Shown: positions 1 to 8,092 of the stretch, in pieces
Position numbering within the stretch: the stretch's first letter is position 1
Layout of the letters: every line of letters begins with the position of its first letter
Assembly: GCF_000026545.1 (NCBI RefSeq)
Contig: NC_011601.1
DNA length: 64,000 bases
Strand: one strand, 5' to 3'
Source of the DNA: Escherichia coli O127:H6 str. E2348/69
GTDB lineage: Bacteria; Pseudomonadota; Gammaproteobacteria; Enterobacterales; Enterobacteriaceae
Made by a program: the position numbers and the translations under genes
The notes under the pieces: generated by a model
The model's input: only the letters and a program-made list of their open reading frames with translations
What the model was told of the DNA's origin: nothing
Databases searched by the model: none

Positions 1-60
1 TTAAGCGAAGTCATCCACGAAGCAGCAATGGCCTTGAATAATAAAGCATTACACGGATAA
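1..60 (+). CDS. Possible 3' end of an upstream gene truncated by the window edge (frame 1 ends ...LSEVIHEAAMALNNKALHG, stop at 58-60)
   Basis: Open frame from position 1 to TAA at 58-60, 21 nt before the RBS/ATG of the next gene; too short to identify; a different frame also ends at 39-41. Confidence 0.25.
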   Translation, partial: LSEVIHEAAMALNNKALHG

Positions 61-81
61 CACATACCACTGAGGGAATAT

Positions 82-1251
82 ATGAATTTACATGAGTATC
101 AGGCCAAATCGTTACTGGCTGGCATGGGGATGCCGTGTCCAAAAGAGATAGCCATCCAACAGATTTCGCAACTGGCAGATGCCTGGCAACATATTGCTTG
201 CCCGAGTAAAGGCGCGGTACTTAAAGCGCAGGTACATGCTGGTGGGCGCGGTAAAGCTGGCGGCGTAAAAGTGCTTAAGCAGCTGCCGGAAGCACAGGCT
301 TTTGTACAGCAAATGTTGGGATCGCAACTGGTGACTTATCAGACCGGGCCAGAAGGACAGTATGTCAGCAGTATTTTACTGTGCGAAAACATTTATCCGG
401 TACGCCAGGAACTCTATTTTGGCATGGTGGTGGATCGTGAAAGCCAGCGGGTCACGTTTATTGTCAGCCCGGAAGGTGGTGTGGAAATTGAAAAAGTCGC
501 CCATGAGACACCGGAGAAAATCAGCAGTGTCAGCATTGATCCACTGACAGGCGTGCAGCCTTGCCATATCCGAGAAATGTTTGCTGTTCTGCAACTGGAA
601 CACGGACTATTTGCTGCCTTTAGTCGCCTGGTTAATCAGGCGTGGAAAGCCTTTAACGAACTGGATTTTGCCCTGCTGGAAATTAACCCTCTGGTGTTGC
701 GGGAAACGGGCGAATTTATGTGTGCAGACGCGAAAGTATCGCTGGATGATAACGCGCTGTATCGTCACCCGGAACTCCAGGTGCTACGTGATGAAACCCA
801 GGAAGATCCACGCGAAAGCCAGGCAGCGAAGCTTGATCTTAATTATGTCTCGCTGGACGGAAATATCGGCTGCATGGTCAATGGTGCAGGGCTGGCTATG
901 GCAACCATGGACATCATCAAGCTATACGGTGAACAACCCGCAAACTTCCTGGATGTTGGCGGTGGCGCAACCCAGGAGCGCGTCAGTGAAGCCTTTCGGC
1001 TGATTGTTTCCGACGGCAAAGTGAAAGCCATTCTGGTTAATATTTTTGGTGGGATTGTCCGTTGCGACATGATCGCCAGAGCCATTATTCATGCTCTGAA
1101 TGAGGCCCGTATCACCCTGCCTGTCGTGGTGCGTCTCTCCGGTAATAACGCTGCCGAAGGGCAGCGGTTACTGGCAGAAAGTGGCCTGACGGTGGAAGCC
1201 GTCAATTCTCTGGATGATGCCGCTAAACGCATCATTGCGTTACTGAATTAA
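82..1251 (+). CDS. Succinyl-CoA synthetase beta subunit paralogue (ADP-forming, SucC-like), accessory island
   Basis: 389 aa; N-terminus MNLHEYQAKSLLAGMGMP is the classic SucC start; ATP-grasp-like sequence throughout; GAGGGAA RBS upstream; immediately followed by a SucD-like gene. Confidence 0.9.
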   Translation: MNLHEYQAKSLLAGMGMPCPKEIAIQQISQLADAWQHIACPSKGAVLKAQVHAGGRGKAGGVKVLKQLPEAQAFVQQMLGSQLVTYQTGPEGQYVSSILLCENIYPVRQELYFGMVVDRESQRVTFIVSPEGGVEIEKVAHETPEKISSVSIDPLTGVQPCHIREMFAVLQLEHGLFAAFSRLVNQAWKAFNELDFALLEINPLVLRETGEFMCADAKVSLDDNALYRHPELQVLRDETQEDPRESQAAKLDLNYVSLDGNIGCMVNGAGLAMATMDIIKLYGEQPANFLDVGGGATQERVSEAFRLIVSDGKVKAILVNIFGGIVRCDMIARAIIHALNEARITLPVVVRLSGNNAAEGQRLLAESGLTVEAVNSLDDAAKRIIALLN

Positions 1252-1263
1252 CAGGAGGTTAAG

Positions 1264-2136
1264 ATGAGCGTTTTGATCAACAAACACACGCGGGTACTGG
1301 TGCAGGGCATTACCGGCAAAAACGGCACATTTCATACAGAGCAGGCTATTGCGTATGGCACGCAGATTGTGGGTGGAGTGACGCCAGGTAAGGGCGGGCA
1401 ACGGCATCTGGATCGCCCGGTTTTTGATTCAATGAAAGAAGCGATGCGACAAACTGAGGCTGATGCCAGCGTGATTTATGTGCCTGCACCGTTTGTGCTG
1501 GATTCTGTTGTTGAGGCTATTGAAGCTGGCGTCAAATTGGTTGTGGTGATCACTGAAGGTGTACCGACACTGGATATGGTGAAAGTTCGTCGGCTGCTTG
1601 ACTGCCACCCGGATGTGCGGCTGATTGGGCCAAACTGCCCAGGAGTTATCACGCCGGGTGAGTGCAAAATCGGGATTATGCCTGGTGAAATCCACCGCCC
1701 AGGGCGTATTGGGATTGTTTCCCGCTCCGGTACATTAACCTACGAAGCTGTAGCGCAAACCACGGCGCTGGGACTTGGGCAATCCACCTGTATTGGTATT
1801 GGCGGCGATCCGGTTCCGGGGACTAACTTTATTGATGCGCTGCGTTTATTCGAAAATGATCCGCAAACAGACGCGGTAATTATGATCGGTGAAATTGGTG
1901 GTAATGCGGAAGAACGGGCCGCGGAATTTATTCGTCATGAAATGAATAAACCGGTCGTAGGTTATATTGCCGGTGTTACTGCACCAAAAGGAAAACGCAT
2001 GGGACACGCCGGAGCCATTATTTCTGGCGGTAGCGGCAGTGCGGAGGATAAATTCCGGGCGTTCGATAAAGCAGGCATGGCATGGACACGAAATCCAGCA
2101 TTACTTGGCGAAACGTTATGGAATGTTATTAAGTAA
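1264..2136 (+). CDS. Succinyl-CoA synthetase alpha subunit paralogue (SucD-like)
   Basis: 290 aa; CoA-binding N-terminus ([15 protein letters not shown]) and phospho-histidine loop GHAGAII; AGGAGG RBS at 1254-1259; 12 nt after the beta subunit stop. Confidence 0.9.
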
Positions 2137-2153
2137 TCCATAAATGAATATCA

Positions 2154-2179
2154 AGGGAGCATATCGCTCCCTTTTTTTA
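2154..2179 (+). terminator. Rho-independent terminator after the sucCD-like pair
   Basis: GC hairpin (GGGAGC...GCTCCC) followed by a run of seven T. Confidence 0.55.
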
Positions 2180-2212
2180 TCTGTGTGGTAAGGGAATCAT
2201 CTTTTAATAACT

Positions 2213-2230
2213 GTGCGGAAAACCGCGCAT
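2213..2230. promoter_or_regulatory. Palindrome TGTGCGGAAAACCGCGCA, candidate enhancer (UAS) for a sigma-54 activator
   Basis: Near-perfect inverted repeat about 65 bp upstream of the sigma-54 -24 element at 2292; sigma-54 activator sites are typically palindromic and upstream. Confidence 0.3.
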
Positions 2231-2291
2231 AAAATAAAAAGGATAAATAGCTAACTCATTAAATAACAAAGCGTTATTAAAAAATTAAAGA

Positions 2292-2307
2292 TGGCATAGC
2301 TCCTGCA
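2292..2307 (+). promoter_or_regulatory. Sigma-54 (RpoN) -24/-12 promoter, TGGCAT-N5-CTGCA, for the transporter/dehydrogenase genes
   Basis: GG at 2293-2294 and GC at 2305-2306 with exact 10-nt spacing; about 40 bp upstream of the transporter start; a sigma-54 activator is encoded nearby (4921-6279). Confidence 0.55.
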
Positions 2308-2347
2308 ATAGCCAGGCAGGTTTTTTATTTTTCACAATGAGGTGAAT

Positions 2348-3847
2348 ATGTCATCAATATCCCATGGCGCACCACAAAAGCGTCGAATTATCCCTAATCC
2401 CGGCCTGTGGTTGGCGATCATTGCCGGAATTATTATTACCCTTCTGCCACTGGGCGATACCTTGCCCGTCGCCGGACAAAATATGATCGCCATTCTGGTG
2501 TTTGCCATTATTGTCTGGATCAGCGAAGCGATGGATTACACCGCCAGTGCAATTGTTATTTCCGCACTGATTATCTTTATGGTTGGTTTTGCCCCGGATA
2601 TGAATCACCCGGACACGATCCTTGGCACCGCGAAAGCGCTGAAAATGACTCTGTCGGGTTTTTCTAATTCTGCTCTGGCGCTGGTGGCAGCAGCAATGTT
2701 TATCGCGGCGGCAATGACCATTACCGGGCTGGATAAACGCATTGCGCTGTTTACTATGTCGAAAATAGGTGCCAGCAGCCGCAGCATTATTATCGGTGCC
2801 ATTGTGGTGACCATCGTCCTGAGCCTGGTCGTACCCAGTGCCACTGCCCGTACGGCTTGCGTGGTGCCGATTATGATGGGGGTCATTGCGGCATTTAAGG
2901 TGGATAAACATTCACGTTTAGCGGCGTCAATGATGATTGTTATCGCCCAGGCGACCAGTATCTGGAAAGTTGGTATTCAAACTTCGGCGGCGCAAAACCT
3001 GCTTTCTATCGGTTTTATCAATAAAACTTTCGGCGCCGGGCATTCTGTCAGCTGGCTTGACTGGCTGTTAGCGGGCGCGCCCTGGAGCCTCACCATGTCG
3101 GTGATCCTCTATTTCCTCGCACGTAAATTGTTGCCGCCAGAAACGGAAGCTGTTGAAGGGGGGAGCGAGGCCATTAAAAAAGCACTCGCAGAGTTAGGGC
3201 CAACCACCGGTAAAGAAAAACGCTTGATCGGTATTTCGCTGTTGTTACTGCTCTTTTGGTCTACTGGCGGAAAATTGCACAGTATTGATACCACCTCTGT
3301 CACCCTTGCCGGACTGGCGATTATGTTGCTGCCAGGCATCGGTGTAATGAGCTGGAAAGAGGTCGAAAAACGTGTGCAGTGGGGCACGTTGCTTATGTTT
3401 GGTATTGGTATCAGCCTGGGGTCCACGTTGCTTGATACACAGGCAGCTTCATGGATGGCGAACTATGTGGTGAAAGGTTTTGGTCTCGATGGCTTGCCAT
3501 CATTAGCCATCTTCGCGATTCTCGCCGCTTTCTTGATAATCATTCACCTGGGGTTTGCCAGTGCCACTGCGCTAACTGCCGCATTGCTGCCCATCCTGAT
3601 TAGCCTGTTAAGCAGTCTGCCGCCAGAACTCGGCGTTAACCCGGTCGGCATGACCATTCTGCTCGCCTTCAGTGTCAGTTTTGGCTTCATCCTGCCGATT
3701 AACGCGCCACAAAATATGGTGTGTATGGGTACGGATACCTTCACGCCACGCCAGTTTACCCGTGTGGGACTGTACCTGACGGTGATCGGCTACCTGTTGT
3801 TGCTACTGTTTGCCGCCACCTGGTGGAAAATTTTAGGTCTAATGTGA
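2348..3847 (+). CDS. Anion transporter, probably divalent anion:Na+ symporter (DASS/CitT-like) family; candidate alpha-ketoglutarate/dicarboxylate importer
   Basis: About 499 aa, highly hydrophobic with many predicted TM helices; ATG at 2348 preferred over in-frame GTG at 2342 (AGG RBS at 2340-2342); family assignment from overall resemblance, not a search. Confidence 0.75.
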   Translation: MSSISHGAPQKRRIIPNPGLWLAIIAGIIITLLPLGDTLPVAGQNMIAILVFAIIVWISEAMDYTASAIVISALIIFMVGFAPDMNHPDTILGTAKALKMTLSGFSNSALALVAAAMFIAAAMTITGLDKRIALFTMSKIGASSRSIIIGAIVVTIVLSLVVPSATARTACVVPIMMGVIAAFKVDKHSRLAASMMIVIAQATSIWKVGIQTSAAQNLLSIGFINKTFGAGHSVSWLDWLLAGAPWSLTMSVILYFLARKLLPPETEAVEGGSEAIKKALAELGPTTGKEKRLIGISLLLLLFWSTGGKLHSIDTTSVTLAGLAIMLLPGIGVMSWKEVEKRVQWGTLLMFGIGISLGSTLLDTQAASWMANYVVKGFGLDGLPSLAIFAILAAFLIIIHLGFASATALTAALLPILISLLSSLPPELGVNPVGMTILLAFSVSFGFILPINAPQNMVCMGTDTFTPRQFTRVGLYLTVIGYLLLLLFAATWWKILGLM

Positions 3848-3858
3848 GGAAACCAACG

Positions 3859-4932
3859 ATGTCATTACAAATTGCTGTTGAAAAAGTGCGTTGGTTAGCT
3901 GCCGGGCTGCTGGAACTTAATGGCTGTGATGCCGATATCGCTCAGGATGTGGCGGAACATATGATTGAAGCGGAACGTTATGGTTTTGCCAGCCACGGCG
4001 TCACGCTGCTACCGAAATATCTGGAAAATATCGCTCGTGGCGATGTAACCGCGAATGCCCGCCCGGAATGCTTAACAAGTGAAGGTAATTTACAACGTTT
4101 TCATGCCCACAATGGCTTTGGTCAACACGCCGGAAAAGTGGCGGTAAATGCTGCCATCGAACAAACAAAACACCGCGGTTTTTGCCTGTTAACGTTGTGC
4201 CATGCGCATCATTTAGGGCGTATGGGGCATTACGGGCAAATGGTTGCTGATCAAGGCCTGGCGATGCTGGCCATGAGTAACGTCACCGGGCGTCCGGCAC
4301 TGGTCGCCCCGTGGGGCGGTGCGGAACCGCGTATGACCACTAACCCTTTCTGCTTTGCCTGGCCGTTCAGTGATGGGCGTCCGCCGATTCTGGTTGATTT
4401 TGCCACCAGTAGCATGGCGCTAAATAAAGCACGGGTAATGTCGTCCACCGGGAAGCAGGCCGCGCCGGGACAATTGATCGATGCACAGGGGAATCCAAGC
4501 AATGATCCTGGGGTGTTATTCAGCAATCCTCCAGGGGCGTTACTGCCATTTGGTGAGCATAAAGGATTTGGCCTGGCACTGATGATTGAAATGATGGCGG
4601 GGATCTTATCTGGTGGTGACACGATCGCCGAAGATCATCAGACGGATGGATCTGCGCATAATCATCTTTTTGCGTTGATTATCGATCCTGATCAATTCAC
4701 CGATCTGGCAGGGGAGAAAGGGCAGTTCTTTGCGGATTATCTGTTAGCTACGCAGCCTCAACCTGGCGGCAATCCGGTGATTTACCCCGGTATGCCAGAA
4801 GCTGCCAACCGGGAACGCAATGCGAAGATGATTACGATCCCGGTATCATTCTGGTCCTGGGTAGTTGAACATTACGCCCGCAAAGGTATCGATTTGGGGT
4901 TACATCCTCAGGAATCAGCATTAGCTGGATGA
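3859..4932 (+). CDS. Ldh2-family (malate/L-lactate/ureidoglycolate dehydrogenase-like) NAD(P)-dependent oxidoreductase
   Basis: 357 aa from ATG 3859, with GAGGAA RBS 9 nt upstream and 11 nt after the transporter stop; the track ORF 3721-4932 has an N-terminal extension overlapping the transporter and is rejected; conserved HGxxxxPKY-type region (FASHGVTLLPKY). Confidence 0.75.
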   Translation: MSLQIAVEKVRWLAAGLLELNGCDADIAQDVAEHMIEAERYGFASHGVTLLPKYLENIARGDVTANARPECLTSEGNLQRFHAHNGFGQHAGKVAVNAAIEQTKHRGFCLLTLCHAHHLGRMGHYGQMVADQGLAMLAMSNVTGRPALVAPWGGAEPRMTTNPFCFAWPFSDGRPPILVDFATSSMALNKARVMSSTGKQAAPGQLIDAQGNPSNDPGVLFSNPPGALLPFGEHKGFGLALMIEMMAGILSGGDTIAEDHQTDGSAHNHLFALIIDPDQFTDLAGEKGQFFADYLLATQPQPGGNPVIYPGMPEAANRERNAKMITIPVSFWSWVVEHYARKGIDLGLHPQESALAG

Positions 4933-6279
4933 TTCTGGTCGATAAACTTGCGGTTGAATCTGATGTTTGTTGAGTTTGTCATATAAAGTCTTGCGCGGCA
5001 GCTGTAATAGCCGCGCTGTCAAACTGACCTGGCCTTCCGTTTGTCGCAGCATATCTTCGATTAACTTTTTCTCGAAAGCATCAATGCAGGCGGTAAGGCC
5101 ACTCTCTTCTTGCTGAGTCATTGGTACTGGCTGGTGGTGGGTCAGTAAACCGAGAACAAAACGCTCTGCATTGTGTTTAAGTTCACGTACATTGCCAGGC
5201 CAACTTTGTGACTGCAACCAGGCCAGTAACATGGGAGAAATATCAGGCAGAGGACGATTATATTTTTGTGCCGCCTGACTGGCGAACCAGTAAAACAGTT
5301 CAGGGATATCTTCTCGTCGTTGGCGTAGAGGTGGAATATTCAGGCTAACCACATTCAGACGATAATAGAGATCGAGACGAAACAGATGTTCTTCGCTGCG
5401 ACGCAGTAAATCTTCCTTGGTCGCTGCAATAACACGGCAATTCACCGGAATTAATTGATTGGCACCTAATCGTTCAATGGTTCTTTCCTGCAATACACGT
5501 AGCAGTTTTACCTGCATTCCTGATGGCATTCCCTCTATTTCATCGAGAAATAACGTACCACCATTTGCATGTTCAATTTTTCCAATACGCTTTTTAACCG
5601 CACCGGTAAATGCGCCCGCCTCATGACCAAATATTTCGCTTTCAAACAACGTTTCTGGTAAGCCTGCACAGTTTAAGGCAACAAACTGCCCCTGACGGCG
5701 GGTACTCCAGTGATGCAGCATTCTGGCGACGACTTCTTTACCACAACCTGTTTCACCATAAATAAGGACATCGGCACCGGTATCTGCGACATTAAGGATC
5801 ATTTTACGCAGTTGTTGCATCTGCGGACTACGACCAATCAGCACCGGGCCATTTTCCTGTTGCAGATTCGCCAGTAATTGCTGATTTTCTAAAACCAATC
5901 GCCGTTTTTCTACCGCTCTGGCAATAATACTCAATAATTTATCTGAGCTACTTGGTTTCTCAATGAAATCGAATGCACCATTACGCATGGCATCCACCGC
6001 CATTTCCACGTCACCGTGTCCGGTAATTAAAATAACCGGAATTTTGCTATCCATTTCGTTGATGTAACTGAGGAGCTCTAGTCCTGATATTCCAGGTAAC
6101 CTGACATCGGTCAGTATAATAATGTTGGCCTGACTTTGAATAAGGGGAATACTGTGTTCTGCATCGCAACAGGAAATAACACGATAACCAGCCAGCGTGA
6201 GCGTTTGTTCACAGGCAAAACGTACATCGTCACTATCCTCAATATAAACTATAGTAATTTCACTGGATTTATTATTCAT
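4921..6279 (-). CDS. kguR: Sigma-54-dependent response regulator (NtrC family: receiver + AAA+ sigma-54 activator + HTH); consistent with KguR
   Basis: 452 aa; receiver domain with conserved D (IIILTDVRLPG); Walker A GETGCGKE; GAFTGA sigma-54 contact motif; C-terminal HTH; stop overlaps the 3' end of the convergent dehydrogenase gene. Confidence 0.8.
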   Translation of the reverse strand: MNNKSSEITIVYIEDSDDVRFACEQTLTLAGYRVISCCDAEHSIPLIQSQANIIILTDVRLPGISGLELLSYINEMDSKIPVILITGHGDVEMAVDAMRNGAFDFIEKPSSSDKLLSIIARAVEKRRLVLENQQLLANLQQENGPVLIGRSPQMQQLRKMILNVADTGADVLIYGETGCGKEVVARMLHHWSTRRQGQFVALNCAGLPETLFESEIFGHEAGAFTGAVKKRIGKIEHANGGTLFLDEIEGMPSGMQVKLLRVLQERTIERLGANQLIPVNCRVIAATKEDLLRRSEEHLFRLDLYYRLNVVSLNIPPLRQRREDIPELFYWFASQAAQKYNRPLPDISPMLLAWLQSQSWPGNVRELKHNAERFVLGLLTHHQPVPMTQQEESGLTACIDAFEKKLIEDMLRQTEGQVSLTARLLQLPRKTLYDKLNKHQIQPQVYRPESSS

Positions 6280-8092
6280 GTTCTTCTCCCCATTCAGGCC
6301 AGGTTAATGTCATTACTGCGCCGCCTTCAGGATGATTACTGGCGTGGAGTGCGCCGTTCGAATTTCGGACAATTTCGCTGACTATTGCCAGTCCCAACCC
6401 CATTCCTCTACGTTTAGTGGTAAAAAATGGTTCAAATATGCGATCGACAACTTCAGGTGCAAAACCGCCACCGCTGTCTTTAATGGTAATAATAACTTTG
6501 TTATTTGCCTGGCGAATGGCGATATCCAGTCGTTTGTAAGAGCTACCTTCCATAGAATCTAAGGCGTTGCTAATTAAATTACTGAATATCTGTTCAAGAC
6601 CGAGCTCATCGCAATTGACAAATAACGGCATGGATGGGGCTTTTATTCGTCGCTCAATATTATTTTTCTCCATGCTGTGATTAAGTAACGCCACGGCGCT
6701 ATACATCACTTTGATGACATCGGCAGAACCTTTAGGTACGCGATGGCGCGAGGCAAATGCTTTAAGTTCGGAAATGAGCTGCGTCATCCGCTCAATCACT
6801 GAAATAATGTGTTTCAGATTCTGTTCAACCTGCGGATACATCTCTTTTTTTAGCATAGTACGCGCGTTATCAGTAAGTGCGTGAATGGCGGCTAACGGTT
6901 GATTTTGTTCATGGGCAATTTCGGTTGCCATCTGTCCAAGCGCCGCCAGTTTGCTGGACTCTGCCAGTTCACTACGCGTAATTTGTAATACTTGTTCAGC
7001 CTGACTGCGCTCTTTTATCTCCTGTATTAATTTTTGATTGATCAATTCCAGGGCAGATGTACGCTCTTTAACCTGTTTCTCTAATGTTTCATTCGCCAGT
7101 GTTAATAATTGTTGTGCATGAGATCGCATTCTCCAGTATTTAATAAATAACAAAAACAGCAGGTAAATAATTAGCGTAATGACTAACGAAATAGCCCATG
7201 ACCAGTACAGGTTATCTAAGGGGACCATAATTGTCATTTTCCAGTTAAATTCTGGAATGGCTATTTGTTGCGTATAATATTGCGGGAATAAACAGAGTTG
7301 TTCTTTTTTATCTTTCAGGAAAGTAAAATTGCTCACGGTATAACAGGGATAATAATCCGCCGGTAAAAGATTGTCGAGACTATATTGGCGGGTAGATTGT
7401 AGTTTTTGTTTTGCCTGAACAGGTAACGGTTGCAGTGTTCGCATTCGCCATGGCGATTTTGAACTTAAAAATATAATCCCATGTTCATCATTCACGATAA
7501 TATTTTCAGGACCTTCGGCCCATGCTTTTTCAATTTCATTAAGACTTATTTTTACTACTACAACACCGACAATTTTTCCTTTATCTTTTATACTTGTAGA
7601 GAGGAAGAATCCCGGTGTATTCGTAGTGCTACCAATACCGTAAAAGCGTCCATTTAAGCCAGACATGGCGTGTTTATAATAGGGGCGATAGCTATAATTT
7701 TGCCCTACATAGCTGCCGGGGTCCTGCCAGTTGCTAGAAGCGATGGCCTTACCTTGGGTATCCAGAATAAATATTGCTGCGGTTTTGAGTTGAGTATTGA
7801 AATGTGCAATTCGTTGATTGAGTTCGCTGGACATCATATCGTCAGGCGTAATTACCGCCTGACGGATGATATGGTCTGTTGAGAGCATATAGGGTAAAAC
7901 ATAAAATTGCTCGATGGTGGAATATAATGTGGACTTATACATTTCAAGCCGCATTTTATCGGTACCGGACAAGGTATTAAAACGCAAGTGCAAAAAAGCG
8001 ATTGAAACCGCGAGCATGATAAGAAAAAGTGAAATGCTTGTAATGTGAAATCGCCATTTGTTCTTAAATATATAATTCCACGATATTTTCAT
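6272..8092 (-). CDS. kguS: Membrane sensor histidine kinase with periplasmic sensing domain; consistent with KguS
   Basis: 606 aa; two TM segments flanking a roughly 260-aa periplasmic region; H-box (ATEIAHEQNQPL) and HATPase_c motifs; 8-nt overlap with the downstream regulator gene. Confidence 0.8.
   Translation of the reverse strand: MKISWNYIFKNKWRFHITSISLFLIMLAVSIAFLHLRFNTLSGTDKMRLEMYKSTLYSTIEQFYVLPYMLSTDHIIRQAVITPDDMMSSELNQRIAHFNTQLKTAAIFILDTQGKAIASSNWQDPGSYVGQNYSYRPYYKHAMSGLNGRFYGIGSTTNTPGFFLSTSIKDKGKIVGVVVVKISLNEIEKAWAEGPENIIVNDEHGIIFLSSKSPWRMRTLQPLPVQAKQKLQSTRQYSLDNLLPADYYPCYTVSNFTFLKDKKEQLCLFPQYYTQQIAIPEFNWKMTIMVPLDNLYWSWAISLVITLIIYLLFLLFIKYWRMRSHAQQLLTLANETLEKQVKERTSALELINQKLIQEIKERSQAEQVLQITRSELAESSKLAALGQMATEIAHEQNQPLAAIHALTDNARTMLKKEMYPQVEQNLKHIISVIERMTQLISELKAFASRHRVPKGSADVIKVMYSAVALLNHSMEKNNIERRIKAPSMPLFVNCDELGLEQIFSNLISNALDSMEGSSYKRLDIAIRQANNKVIITIKDSGGGFAPEVVDRIFEPFFTTKRRGMGLGLAIVSEIVRNSNGALHASNHPEGGAVMTLTWPEWGEEHE

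Follow-up and report, generated by a model that had tools for sequence, protein, structure and literature searches.

c5039, a transporter-linked Ldh_2-family dehydrogenase of the Escherichia coli KguS/KguR island and its possible role as a 2-oxo-acid reductase

The Ldh_2-family gene that follows a DASS transporter gene in E. coli O127:H6 str. E2348/69 is c5039 of the published KguS/KguR α-ketoglutarate (KG) utilisation island, a locus already known. Its product may serve as a redox valve, reducing a 2-oxo acid by converting KG to 2-hydroxyglutarate, a tentative reading with a probability of roughly 0.45. The window analysed here is a stretch of 64,000 nucleotides of the E2348/69 genome (NC_011601.1), and its relevant features are collected in Table 1. 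New to the description of this gene are its group assignment, the synteny of the group with DASS transporter genes, its non-equivalence to HcxB, AllD, YiaK and sulfolactate dehydrogenase, and an overlooked drop in 2-hydroxyglutarate in published metabolite data.

Table 1. Features of the c5039 locus (positions in the window)
Feature	Position	Strand	Evidence and remarks
sucC paralogue (c5036), succinyl-CoA synthetase beta	82..1251	+	RefSeq; distal in c5032-c5037 operon
sucD paralogue (c5037), succinyl-CoA synthetase alpha	1264..2136	+	RefSeq annotation
Intrinsic-terminator-like hairpin and T-run	2153..2180	+	Stem 2153-2173, then TTTTTTT
KguR site, TGTGCG-N6-CGCGCA imperfect inverted repeat	2212..2229	+	TGTGCGGAAAACCGCGCA
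Sigma-54 promoter-like TGGCAT-N5-CTGC, -24/-12	2292..2306	+	42 nt upstream of transporter ATG
DASS transporter (c5038), anaerobic KG importer, first gene of operon	2348..3847	+	TIGR00785, 240 bits; PMC5318444
Shine-Dalgarno GAGG of c5039, overlaps transporter stop codon	3846..3849	+	
c5039, Ldh_2-family NAD(P)H-dependent 2-hydroxyacid dehydrogenase / 2-oxoacid reductase (predicted activity)	3859..4932	+	357 aa
kguR (c5040), sigma-54 enhancer-binding response regulator	4921..6279	-	ORF, RefSeq; PMC3694859
kguS (c5041), sensor histidine kinase	6272..8092	-	ORF, RefSeq; PMC3694859

The E2348/69 protein and CFT073 c5039 (C_RS23865) are identical at 355 of 357 residues (99.4%). The island has the order sucA-sucB-lpd-sucC-sucD / DASS-Ldh2 / kguR-kguS and is inserted between tyrB and aphA. 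The CFT073 island (c5032-c5041) has the same neighbours, the same tyrB-aphA site, the same KguR site and the same sigma-54 promoter, and only the host strain differs (EPEC versus UPEC). It is an experimentally defined KG utilisation island (PMC3694859, PMC5318444), whose published pathway leads from KG through succinyl-CoA to succinate and ATP. The preliminary description had recognised succinyl-CoA synthetase paralogues and a dicarboxylate-type transporter, and both hold, the latter as a member of the DASS family. RefSeq annotation places a complete 2-oxoglutarate dehydrogenase (E1, E2 and E3) just beyond the left edge of the window, and these genes belong to the c5032-c5037 operon defined by RT-PCR (PMC3694859). 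The genes of the KguS/KguR two-component system lie directly downstream of the dehydrogenase gene; kguR is convergent with it, with an overlap of 12 nt at the 3' end of the dehydrogenase gene. Among 5426 complete E. coli genomes, 1045 (about one in five) have a match to c5039, and the transporter gene is found in an equal number, 1045, and the E1 gene in 1050. The KguS/KguR literature assigns c5039 to the Ldh_2 family and gives its function as unknown. No enzyme assay of c5039 or of a kgu-island orthologue, and no single c5039 mutant, was found there (PMC3694859, PMC5318444, PMC8716947).

The more likely start of the gene is ATG 3859. A longer mechanical open reading frame, starting at GTG 3721, runs into the transporter gene; the ATG is preferred on the basis of the RefSeq start, the alignment of homologue N-termini and the GAGG located 9 nt upstream. 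The transporter gene ends with a TGA stop at 3845-3847, which leaves exactly the 11 nt, with a ribosome-binding site of its own for the dehydrogenase, that had been described beforehand. The same gap of 11 nt separates the two genes in E. albertii, Citrobacter and Klebsiella indica. Pectobacterium has 13 nt and Vibrio 16 nt, and most gaps in Burkholderiales are of about 2-53 nt, approximate values since they are taken from tblastn ends. Expression together with the importer, also proposed earlier, agrees with the co-transcription of c5038 and c5039 seen by RT-PCR in CFT073 (PMC3694859). Translational coupling, the other part of that proposal, is putative in the strict sense; c5039 has its own Shine-Dalgarno sequence.

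The putative terminator hairpin between sucD and the transporter gene would divide c5032-5037 from c5038-5039, consistent with the two operons of PMC3694859. The KguR site at 2212-2229 matches the published site of the c5038 promoter, TGTGCGGAAAACCGCGCACA, and the consensus (PMC8716947). Binding of KguR to the c5038 promoter was observed by EMSA (PMC8716947), and the operator and promoter function was demonstrated in CFT073. The promoter is RpoN-dependent, with a transcription start 30 nt 5' of the start codon (PMC5318444). The generic sigma-54 motif shows no enrichment, with 71 matches in the window versus 88 expected, and it is solely the location and the RpoN dependence known from the literature that give weight to the candidate at 2292-2306. 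KG induces the c5038-c5039 operon; 2-hydroxyglutarate, glutamate, succinate and fumarate do not. Its expression depends on KguR, KguS and RpoN and is higher anaerobically, and in a kguR mutant c5039 changes by a log2FC of -7.97. Joint deletion of c5038-5039 leads to poorer anaerobic growth on KG, and malate supports normal growth of island mutants.

To judge from its sequence, c5039 would be an NAD(P)H-dependent oxidoreductase of the Ldh_2 type. Residues 6-332 match positions 2-329 of the 333 positions of the Pfam Ldh_2 model PF02615 (312.4 bits, E 4.5e-93), in keeping with the family named in the preliminary description, and the AlphaFold2 model (pLDDT 83, pTM 0.83) has the three-domain Ldh_2 fold. 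All 27 significant Foldseek matches of this model in the PDB are Ldh_2 structures, with TM scores of 0.70-0.79, the best being 2g8y. In AllD, His44 and His116 lie beside the nicotinamide, and Thr156, Pro158, Asp174, Lys224 and Gly306 bind the cofactor (PMC3527362). The AllD residues S43, H44, Y52, H116, T156, P158, D174 and K224 are kept in c5039 as S45, H46, Y54, H118, T161, P163, D180 and K235, and H46, H118, T161, P163, D180, K235 and G311 are invariant in three alignments, including one of 86 sequences. The substrate side is different. The substrate Arg of AllD (R48) is replaced by a hydrophobic residue, L50, and the loop with S140/D141, which contact the substrate, by NVTGRP, in which R145 lies within a three-residue insertion. 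R145, together with R40 and R68, is specific to the clade of c5039, being present in 96-100% of the DASS-linked members of the 86-sequence alignment and seldom found in its HcxB-like members. Since residues 185-233 are poorly modelled, the argument from these three arginines, which may hint at the substrate, is based on the alignment.

Judged against the curated NCBIfam cut-offs, c5039 does not belong to any of the equivalogs considered. It scores 276.8 bits against a cut-off of 336 for HcxB/YbiC (NF007504), and it falls outside the HcxB-like group of the tree. The scores for AllD are 129 bits against 496 (TIGR03175) and 127.5 against 356 (NF011599), and Arg48, Ser140 and Asp141 are not conserved. 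Those for the 2,3-diketo-L-gulonate reductase YiaK (NF009750) and L-sulfolactate dehydrogenase (NF040650) are 145.2 bits against 316 and 137.7 against 500. AllD, YiaK/DlgD, Pseudomonas DpkA and the archaeal sulfolactate dehydrogenase share the fold, the NAD(P)H-binding residues and the catalytic histidines with c5039 at 24-28% identity. The genes of the ldh2 riboswitch candidate of Negativicutes (PMC8632094) are distant Ldh_2 genes, irrelevant to c5039.

The group to which c5039 belongs is defined by synteny. Of the 48 assessable loci whose Ldh_2 protein is at least 43% identical to c5039, 44 have an orthologue of c5038 as the immediately preceding gene on the same strand, and such an orthologue adjoins none of the 31 HcxB-like Ldh_2 genes (at most 42% identity). 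At loci outside the kgu island these transporters are 59-64% identical to c5038. In a neighbour-joining tree of 86 sequences, the DASS-linked group is monophyletic with the Cupriavidus necator Ldh and excludes the HcxB-like sequences in 97 of 100 bootstraps, and the kgu-island subclade has a support of 100/100. The pair stays joined in Vibrio despite rearrangement of the island, stands alone in Burkholderiales, with no adjoining 2-oxoglutarate dehydrogenase, and is retained in an endosymbiont genome of 0.82 Mb. A search of the literature on the symbiont Kinetoplastibacterium found nothing on its Ldh_2 and DASS genes. Among PDB relatives, c5038 scores 94 bits with VcINDY, 84 with DiT2.1, 77 with LaINDY and 71 with DiT1, scores that do not separate a symporter from an exchanger.

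From these features we infer the direction of the reaction, its substrate, its stereochemistry and the redox-valve role. The c5039 product would be a soluble NAD(P)H-dependent L-2-hydroxyacid dehydrogenase acting as a 2-oxo-acid reductase. The c5038-c5039 operon is transcribed from a KguR/sigma-54 promoter that fires only with KG and mainly without oxygen. KG would enter through the DASS transporter, and the Ldh_2 enzyme would use a second 2-oxo acid to re-oxidise NADH. The likeliest second acid is KG itself, which would be reduced to (L-)2-hydroxyglutarate, so that the net process would be a KG dismutation. The fate of NADH under anaerobiosis is not stated in the island literature, in which c5039 is the sole island gene with no assigned role. 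Interconversion of 2-oxoglutarate and 2-hydroxyglutarate had been suggested earlier, and the island function, the importer, induction by KG only and the metabolite drop support it as a hypothesis.

That drop is found in Table 2 of PMC8716947, where 2-hydroxyglutaric acid in the kguR mutant has a log2FC of -2.59 relative to the wild type (p 5.8e-5), about 6-fold lower. The value is confounded, since the mutant also lacks the KG importer and all KG-derived pools fall; succinate and glutamate have log2FC values of -1.66 and -2.58 (PMC8716947). It is also a value for D- and L-2-hydroxyglutarate together, which were not separated by the reversed-phase LC-MS used. The authors of PMC8716947 left the 2-hydroxyglutarate drop undiscussed. 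Further E. coli enzymes produce 2-hydroxyglutarate, another confounder of the comparison. The published growth and expression experiments were mostly carried out with TMAO, so that the cells could in principle do without a fermentative NADH sink. It is quite unlikely that the DASS-Ldh2 pair forms a self-contained KG dismutation module, in which the carrier would exchange KG for succinate or L-2-hydroxyglutarate, half of the KG going to L-2-hydroxyglutarate and the other half to succinate and ATP with no external electron acceptor.

The nearest characterised relatives of c5039, the C. necator Ldh and HcxB, are 2-oxo-acid reductases. The C. necator H16 enzyme (H16_A0666, CAJ91814.1), a fermentative L-lactate dehydrogenase and the one purified orthologue, belongs to the same clade and is 45% identical over its full length, 55% of the residues being different. 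Like c5039, it has an orthologous DASS gene directly upstream, the catalytic His pair, the HHLGR motif and the clade-specific residues, R145 included. Unlike that of c5039, its cassette stands alone, 2-oxoglutarate dehydrogenase, succinyl-CoA synthetase and KguSR being absent from its surroundings, and the named substrate of the enzyme is pyruvate. It is also produced under oxygen limitation. This Ldh (Steinbuchel & Schlegel 1983; Jendrossek et al. 1993) founded the Ldh_2 family. The account given in PMC12149483, citing Steinbuchel & Schlegel 1983, describes the purified NAD-linked enzyme as promiscuous on 2-oxo acids, and reduction of branched-chain keto acids is stated in one literature account. 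Within the DASS-linked group, it is the one member for which NADH-dependent reduction of pyruvate and further 2-oxo acids is known. E. coli HcxB (YbiC, hydroxycarboxylate dehydrogenase B, 2g8y) is the best PDB match by both sequence and fold, at 34% identity. Like c5039, it has the HHxGR motif, K190/R192 and, in place of AllD R48, a hydrophobic residue, but it lies outside the DASS-linked clade, has no adjoining transporter and lacks R145 and the other clade-specific residues. In vitro, HcxB uses NADPH to reduce 2-oxoglutarate and aryl-pyruvates. Its KEGG entry links it to tyrosine metabolism, and the secondary literature consulted for its substrates gave those of HcxA/YbdH only.

The main rival to KG reduction is reduction of pyruvate to L-lactate. 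If c5039 were an NADH-dependent L-lactate dehydrogenase, it would act as an NADH sink on pyruvate, whether formed from KG or from other carbon, and L-lactate would be released. The C. necator Ldh, which shares its clade and DASS-Ldh2 synteny, is the closest biochemically characterised protein, the substrate-side residues L50 and L51 are hydrophobic as they are in that enzyme, and the CFT073 gene was formerly named 'lactate dehydrogenase' in RefSeq. This role is nevertheless unlikely, as a monocarboxylate substrate leaves the pairing with a di/tricarboxylate carrier, the KG-specific regulon and the clade-specific arginines unexplained. E. coli already has LdhA, a fermentative D-lactate dehydrogenase. 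Lactate is also absent from the metabolites altered in the kguR mutant (PMC8716947, Table 2).

Operation in the opposite direction, in which imported L-2-hydroxyglutarate or L-malate would be oxidised to a 2-oxo acid for the island dehydrogenase complex or gluconeogenesis, is improbable. Several Ldh_2 enzymes, such as AllD, do oxidise their substrates in vivo, transporter-enzyme pairs are typical of catabolic cassettes, and the solitary Burkholderiales cassette would suit such a role. However, 2-hydroxyglutarate does not induce the operon, growth of the island mutants on malate is normal, expression peaks anaerobically, when NADH disposal is the problem, and an active operon goes with a larger, not a smaller, 2-hydroxyglutarate pool. 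Oxidation of 2-hydroxy acids with NAD is, moreover, thermodynamically unfavourable. There is an equally small chance that c5039 has no dedicated role in KG metabolism and is a broad-specificity reductase that was carried into the island in a pre-existing operon with the transporter. The cassette is older than the island and occurs on its own in Burkholderiales, and loss of the transporter could by itself account for the growth defect of the double mutant, since complementation with c5038 restores growth. A mere passenger would not be expected to stay paired across two proteobacterial classes, in a rearranged island and in so small an endosymbiont genome, or to be at least 99% identical in 1042 of the 1045 E. 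coli genomes with a match. Least probable is a type-2 malate dehydrogenase (oxaloacetate/L-malate) serving a C4 branch or a KG/malate exchange like that of plastid DiT carriers: several Ldh_2 structures were deposited under the name malate dehydrogenase (1v9n, 1z2i, 3i0p) and the transporter is related to the plastid 2-oxoglutarate/malate carriers DiT1 and DiT2.1, but these deposited enzymes are among the most distant structural relatives of c5039 (64-121 bits), E. coli has Mdh under all conditions, and the island mutants have no malate phenotype.

The island promotes colonisation of the bladder and kidney by uropathogenic E. coli. If c5039 is a KG-reducing NADH sink, the island pathway would be a balanced fermentation, and 2-hydroxyglutarate would be released at the site of infection. 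2-Hydroxyglutarate is active on host cells, and its L form inhibits host KG-dependent dioxygenases. If the dismutation is true, it would be a KG fermentation of a kind not described for E. coli, by which uropathogenic and other B2 strains would turn KG, an abundant kidney metabolite, into L-2-hydroxyglutarate during infection, and the cassette would serve redox balance in this way also in Bordetella, Achromobacter, Cupriavidus and trypanosomatid endosymbionts. Given the DASS pairing in Burkholderiales such as Bordetella and C. necator, the physiological substrate of the founding Ldh_2 member may merit re-examination.

The locus is the KguS/KguR alpha-ketoglutarate (KG) utilisation island, c5032-c5041 in uropathogenic E. 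coli CFT073 (PMC3694859). Since the gene order is the same in CFT073 and the product of its C_RS23865 is identical to the window protein at 355 of 357 residues, the dehydrogenase gene is c5039, an already published but neglected member of a known island. The annotated order is tyrB, the 2-oxoglutarate dehydrogenase E1, E2 and E3 genes, sucC (at the left edge of the window), sucD, the DASS transporter and the Ldh-family oxidoreductase, followed by the convergent sigma-54 regulator, the sensor kinase and aphA. The island is intact in E2348/69, a prototype enteropathogenic strain; its distribution probably tracks phylogroup B2, not pathotype.

The c5039 protein of 357 residues has a full-length Ldh_2 domain (PF02615, E 4.5e-93). 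The crystal structures matching its AlphaFold2 model (pLDDT 83) are all Ldh_2 members, the best being E. coli YbiC/HcxB (2g8y). Because of the position of the upstream stop codon, the gap between the two genes is 11 nt, and a GAGG lies 9 nt upstream of the ATG. A longer frame from a GTG is a mechanical artefact, since the RefSeq annotation and all homologue N-termini favour the ATG. The preliminary description of an Ldh_2 gene with its own ribosome-binding site 11 nt after the transporter stop is thus correct, and the co-expression that it proposed is borne out by RT-PCR in CFT073, where c5038-5039 is a single operon and c5032-5037 another (PMC3694859). Both the enzyme class and the operon membership of c5039 are established.

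Features of the KguS/KguR island around c5039 (window coordinates)
Feature	Position	Strand	Basis or remark
Intact island (locus L001)	1-8092
Terminator hairpin 3' of sucD	2153-2173		sequence
KguR operator, published site TGTGCGGAAAACCGCGCA	2212-2229		sequence match in window
-24/-12-like element	2292-2306		sequence motif
Transporter gene c5038	2348-3847	+
Rejected GTG start of c5039	3721
Stop codon (TGA) of c5038	3845-3847
GAGG	3846-3849
c5039, from ATG	3859-4932	+
3' overlap of c5039 and kguR	4921-4932

The 3' ends of c5039 and the convergent kguR overlap by 12 nt, so that neither strand has space for a terminator. Pectobacterium shares the overlap (locus L004, 11061-11071), and in Vibrio (L002) a gap of about 500 nt takes its place. 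The operon and its regulator may be subject to mutual transcriptional interference or antisense effects.

Among complete E. coli genomes, c5039 is found in 1045 of 5426, with at least 99% identity in 1042 of the 1045; one copy of the island genes is on a plasmid record, not a chromosome. The adjacent transporter gene reaches at least 99% identity in just 622 of 1045 genomes, against 485 of 1050 for the island E1 gene. In E. coli there seem to be two haplotypes of the island's left part, the right part from c5039 onwards being uniform, and a recombination boundary may lie near the operon junction.

Within the Ldh_2 family, the best NCBIfam model for c5039 is the YbiC/HcxB equivalog, with a score of 276.8 that is below the cut-off of 336, and the protein scores far under the cut-offs of the models for AllD, YiaK and sulfolactate dehydrogenase. 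Identity is 34% to E. coli HcxB and, in the multiple alignment, 27% to each of YiaK and AllD. These cut-offs and the active-site residues effectively exclude ureidoglycolate, diketogulonate, sulfolactate and cyclic-imine chemistry. Close orthologues (61-97%) were found by database search in E. albertii, Klebsiella indica, Salmonella, Brenneria, Pectobacterium and one Vibrio, and by the genome-collection scan in Citrobacter (86%). The next tier is a large Burkholderiales set (43-51%), followed by HcxB-like proteins (at most 42%). One Burkholderiales relative, CAJ91814.1 of Cupriavidus necator H16 (45%), is H16_A0666, given as Ldh in PMC10656315; its gene founded the Ldh_2 family (Jendrossek et al. 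1993, as described in a citing paper). According to PMC12149483, Steinbuchel & Schlegel (1983) purified the C. necator Ldh, an L-lactate dehydrogenase linked to NAD and active on further 2-oxo acids as well. Reduction of pyruvate to L-lactate, as in this orthologue, is an unlikely reading of c5039, though the main alternative.

The catalytic and cofactor residues, with roles taken from the AllD structure (PMC3527362), are all present in c5039 (S45, H46, Y54, H118, T161, P163, D180, K235 and G311). On the substrate side, the arginine of AllD and YiaK (R48) is replaced by Leu50, a position that is likewise hydrophobic in HcxB and the C. necator Ldh. Opposite the substrate-contacting S140/D141 of AllD, the aligned loop has a three-residue insertion (NVTGRP). 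Its R145 occurs in every one of the 47 DASS-linked sequences and in only 5 of 31 HcxB-like ones, and R40 and R68 show a similar pattern. Judged from the alignment, such arginines, specific to the group linked to dicarboxylate carriers, would be expected for a substrate with a second carboxylate.

Neighbourhoods were compared in individual contigs and a scan of one genome per species, the island proteins being placed in 80 loci by tblastn. A c5038 orthologue is directly upstream, on the same strand, in 44 of the 48 assessable loci with an Ldh_2 protein at least 43% identical, and next to none of the 31 at 36-42%. In loci other than the kgu islands the transporter shares 59-64% identity and so is better conserved than its partner dehydrogenase. 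Loci with the complete island are confined to Escherichia, Citrobacter, Klebsiella indica, Pectobacterium and Vibrio; the Vibrio island has its dehydrogenase-complex operon shifted to the opposite side of kguRS, with the transporter-dehydrogenase pair unbroken. A stand-alone pair is found in Cupriavidus, Paraburkholderia, Burkholderia, Pandoraea, Bordetella, Achromobacter and Variovorax. In a neighbour-joining tree of 86 sequences, the DASS-linked group is monophyletic in 97 of 100 bootstraps and the island subclade in 100. Together, neighbourhoods and tree indicate an old two-gene cassette of dehydrogenase and dicarboxylate carrier that was recruited by the KG island, a link of which no mention was found in the cited literature. 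The conserved pairing argues against a hitch-hiking gene that lacks a specific role, which is improbable. It is very probable that c5039 is a 2-oxo-acid/2-hydroxy-acid oxidoreductase functionally tied to the carrier.

Several loci deserve separate mention. Candidatus Kinetoplastibacterium galati (L092), an endosymbiont of trypanosomatids whose genome measures 0.82 Mb, has the pair at the Bordetella position (L008), between an amino-acid kinase gene and rodA/mrdA; its retention there implies that taking up a host dicarboxylate, or its redox handling, is a core function of the pair. Achromobacter sp. UMC46 has two separate cassettes (L031, L050). The MAG 'Flavobacteriia bacterium HF-Dia32' (L014, JABXHW010000047.1) bears the rearranged Vibrio-type island with identities as in Vibrio sp. 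Y2-5 (L013), and is probably a mis-binned Vibrio contig, not a Bacteroidota island. Four clade members, from Variovorax sp. N23, Cupriavidus plantarum, a proteobacterial MAG and Xanthomonas massiliensis (L016, L048, L053, L056), have no DASS gene in the 7-10 kb flank and retain all clade-specific residues, including R145; they are natural tests of the enzyme's need for the carrier.

Both operons are bound by KguR, depend on KguS and are induced by KG, not by 2-hydroxyglutarate, glutamate, glutarate, fumarate or succinate; FNR and ArcA enhance the activity of the c5038 promoter, which requires RpoN. Anaerobic growth on KG is abolished by deletion of c5032-5039 and reduced by deletion of c5038-5039, growth on glucose, glycerol, succinate, fumarate and malate being normal (PMC3694859). 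Under anaerobic conditions KG is imported mainly by C5038, which also aids fitness in the mouse urinary tract (PMC5318444). The KguS/KguR literature (PMC3694859, PMC5318444, PMC8716947) reports neither a single deletion nor an enzyme assay of c5039. Compared with the wild type, a kguR mutant in anaerobic culture with glycerol, TMAO and KG shows a 6-fold decrease in '2-hydroxyglutaric acid' (148.036 Da; log2FC -2.59, p 5.8e-5; PMC8716947, Table 2). It is among the most reduced metabolites, though the main text mentions it only in that table. Succinate (-1.66) and glutamate (-2.58) also fall, c5039 is down by log2 7.97, and lhgO, the L-2-hydroxyglutarate oxidase gene, is up by log2 1.33 (supplementary file 5). 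The 2-hydroxyglutarate drop is compatible with a KguR-dependent KG reductase, but is confounded: the KG importer too is missing from the mutant, and enantiomers are not separated by the method. That c5039 instead oxidises an imported 2-hydroxy-dicarboxylate has a small probability; three observations argue against it, namely the specificity of induction, the unimpaired growth on malate of island mutants, and the direction in which 2-hydroxyglutarate changes. A malate dehydrogenase is less probable still.

The island oxidises KG to succinate, with ATP formed at the succinyl-CoA synthetase step but one NADH arising per KG, and the c5038-c5039 operon is switched on under limited respiration. An NADH-dependent 2-oxo-acid reductase made alongside is the obvious NADH sink, and KG is the 2-oxo acid that the product of the gene 11 nt upstream imports at a high rate. 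These considerations lead to a proposed dismutation, in which 2 KG would yield succinate, CO2, 2-hydroxyglutarate (the L-form by family precedent) and ATP. The full proposal, that c5039 reduces KG to 2-hydroxyglutarate as an NADH sink, with substrate, direction and role all predicted, is tentative, at a probability of about 0.45; the cautious idea of 2-hydroxyglutarate/2-oxoglutarate interconversion in the preliminary description is a reasonable one and has gained support. The remaining interest lies in the enzyme activity of c5039, in the conserved carrier-dehydrogenase cassette, and in pathogens possibly turning host KG into 2-hydroxyglutarate.
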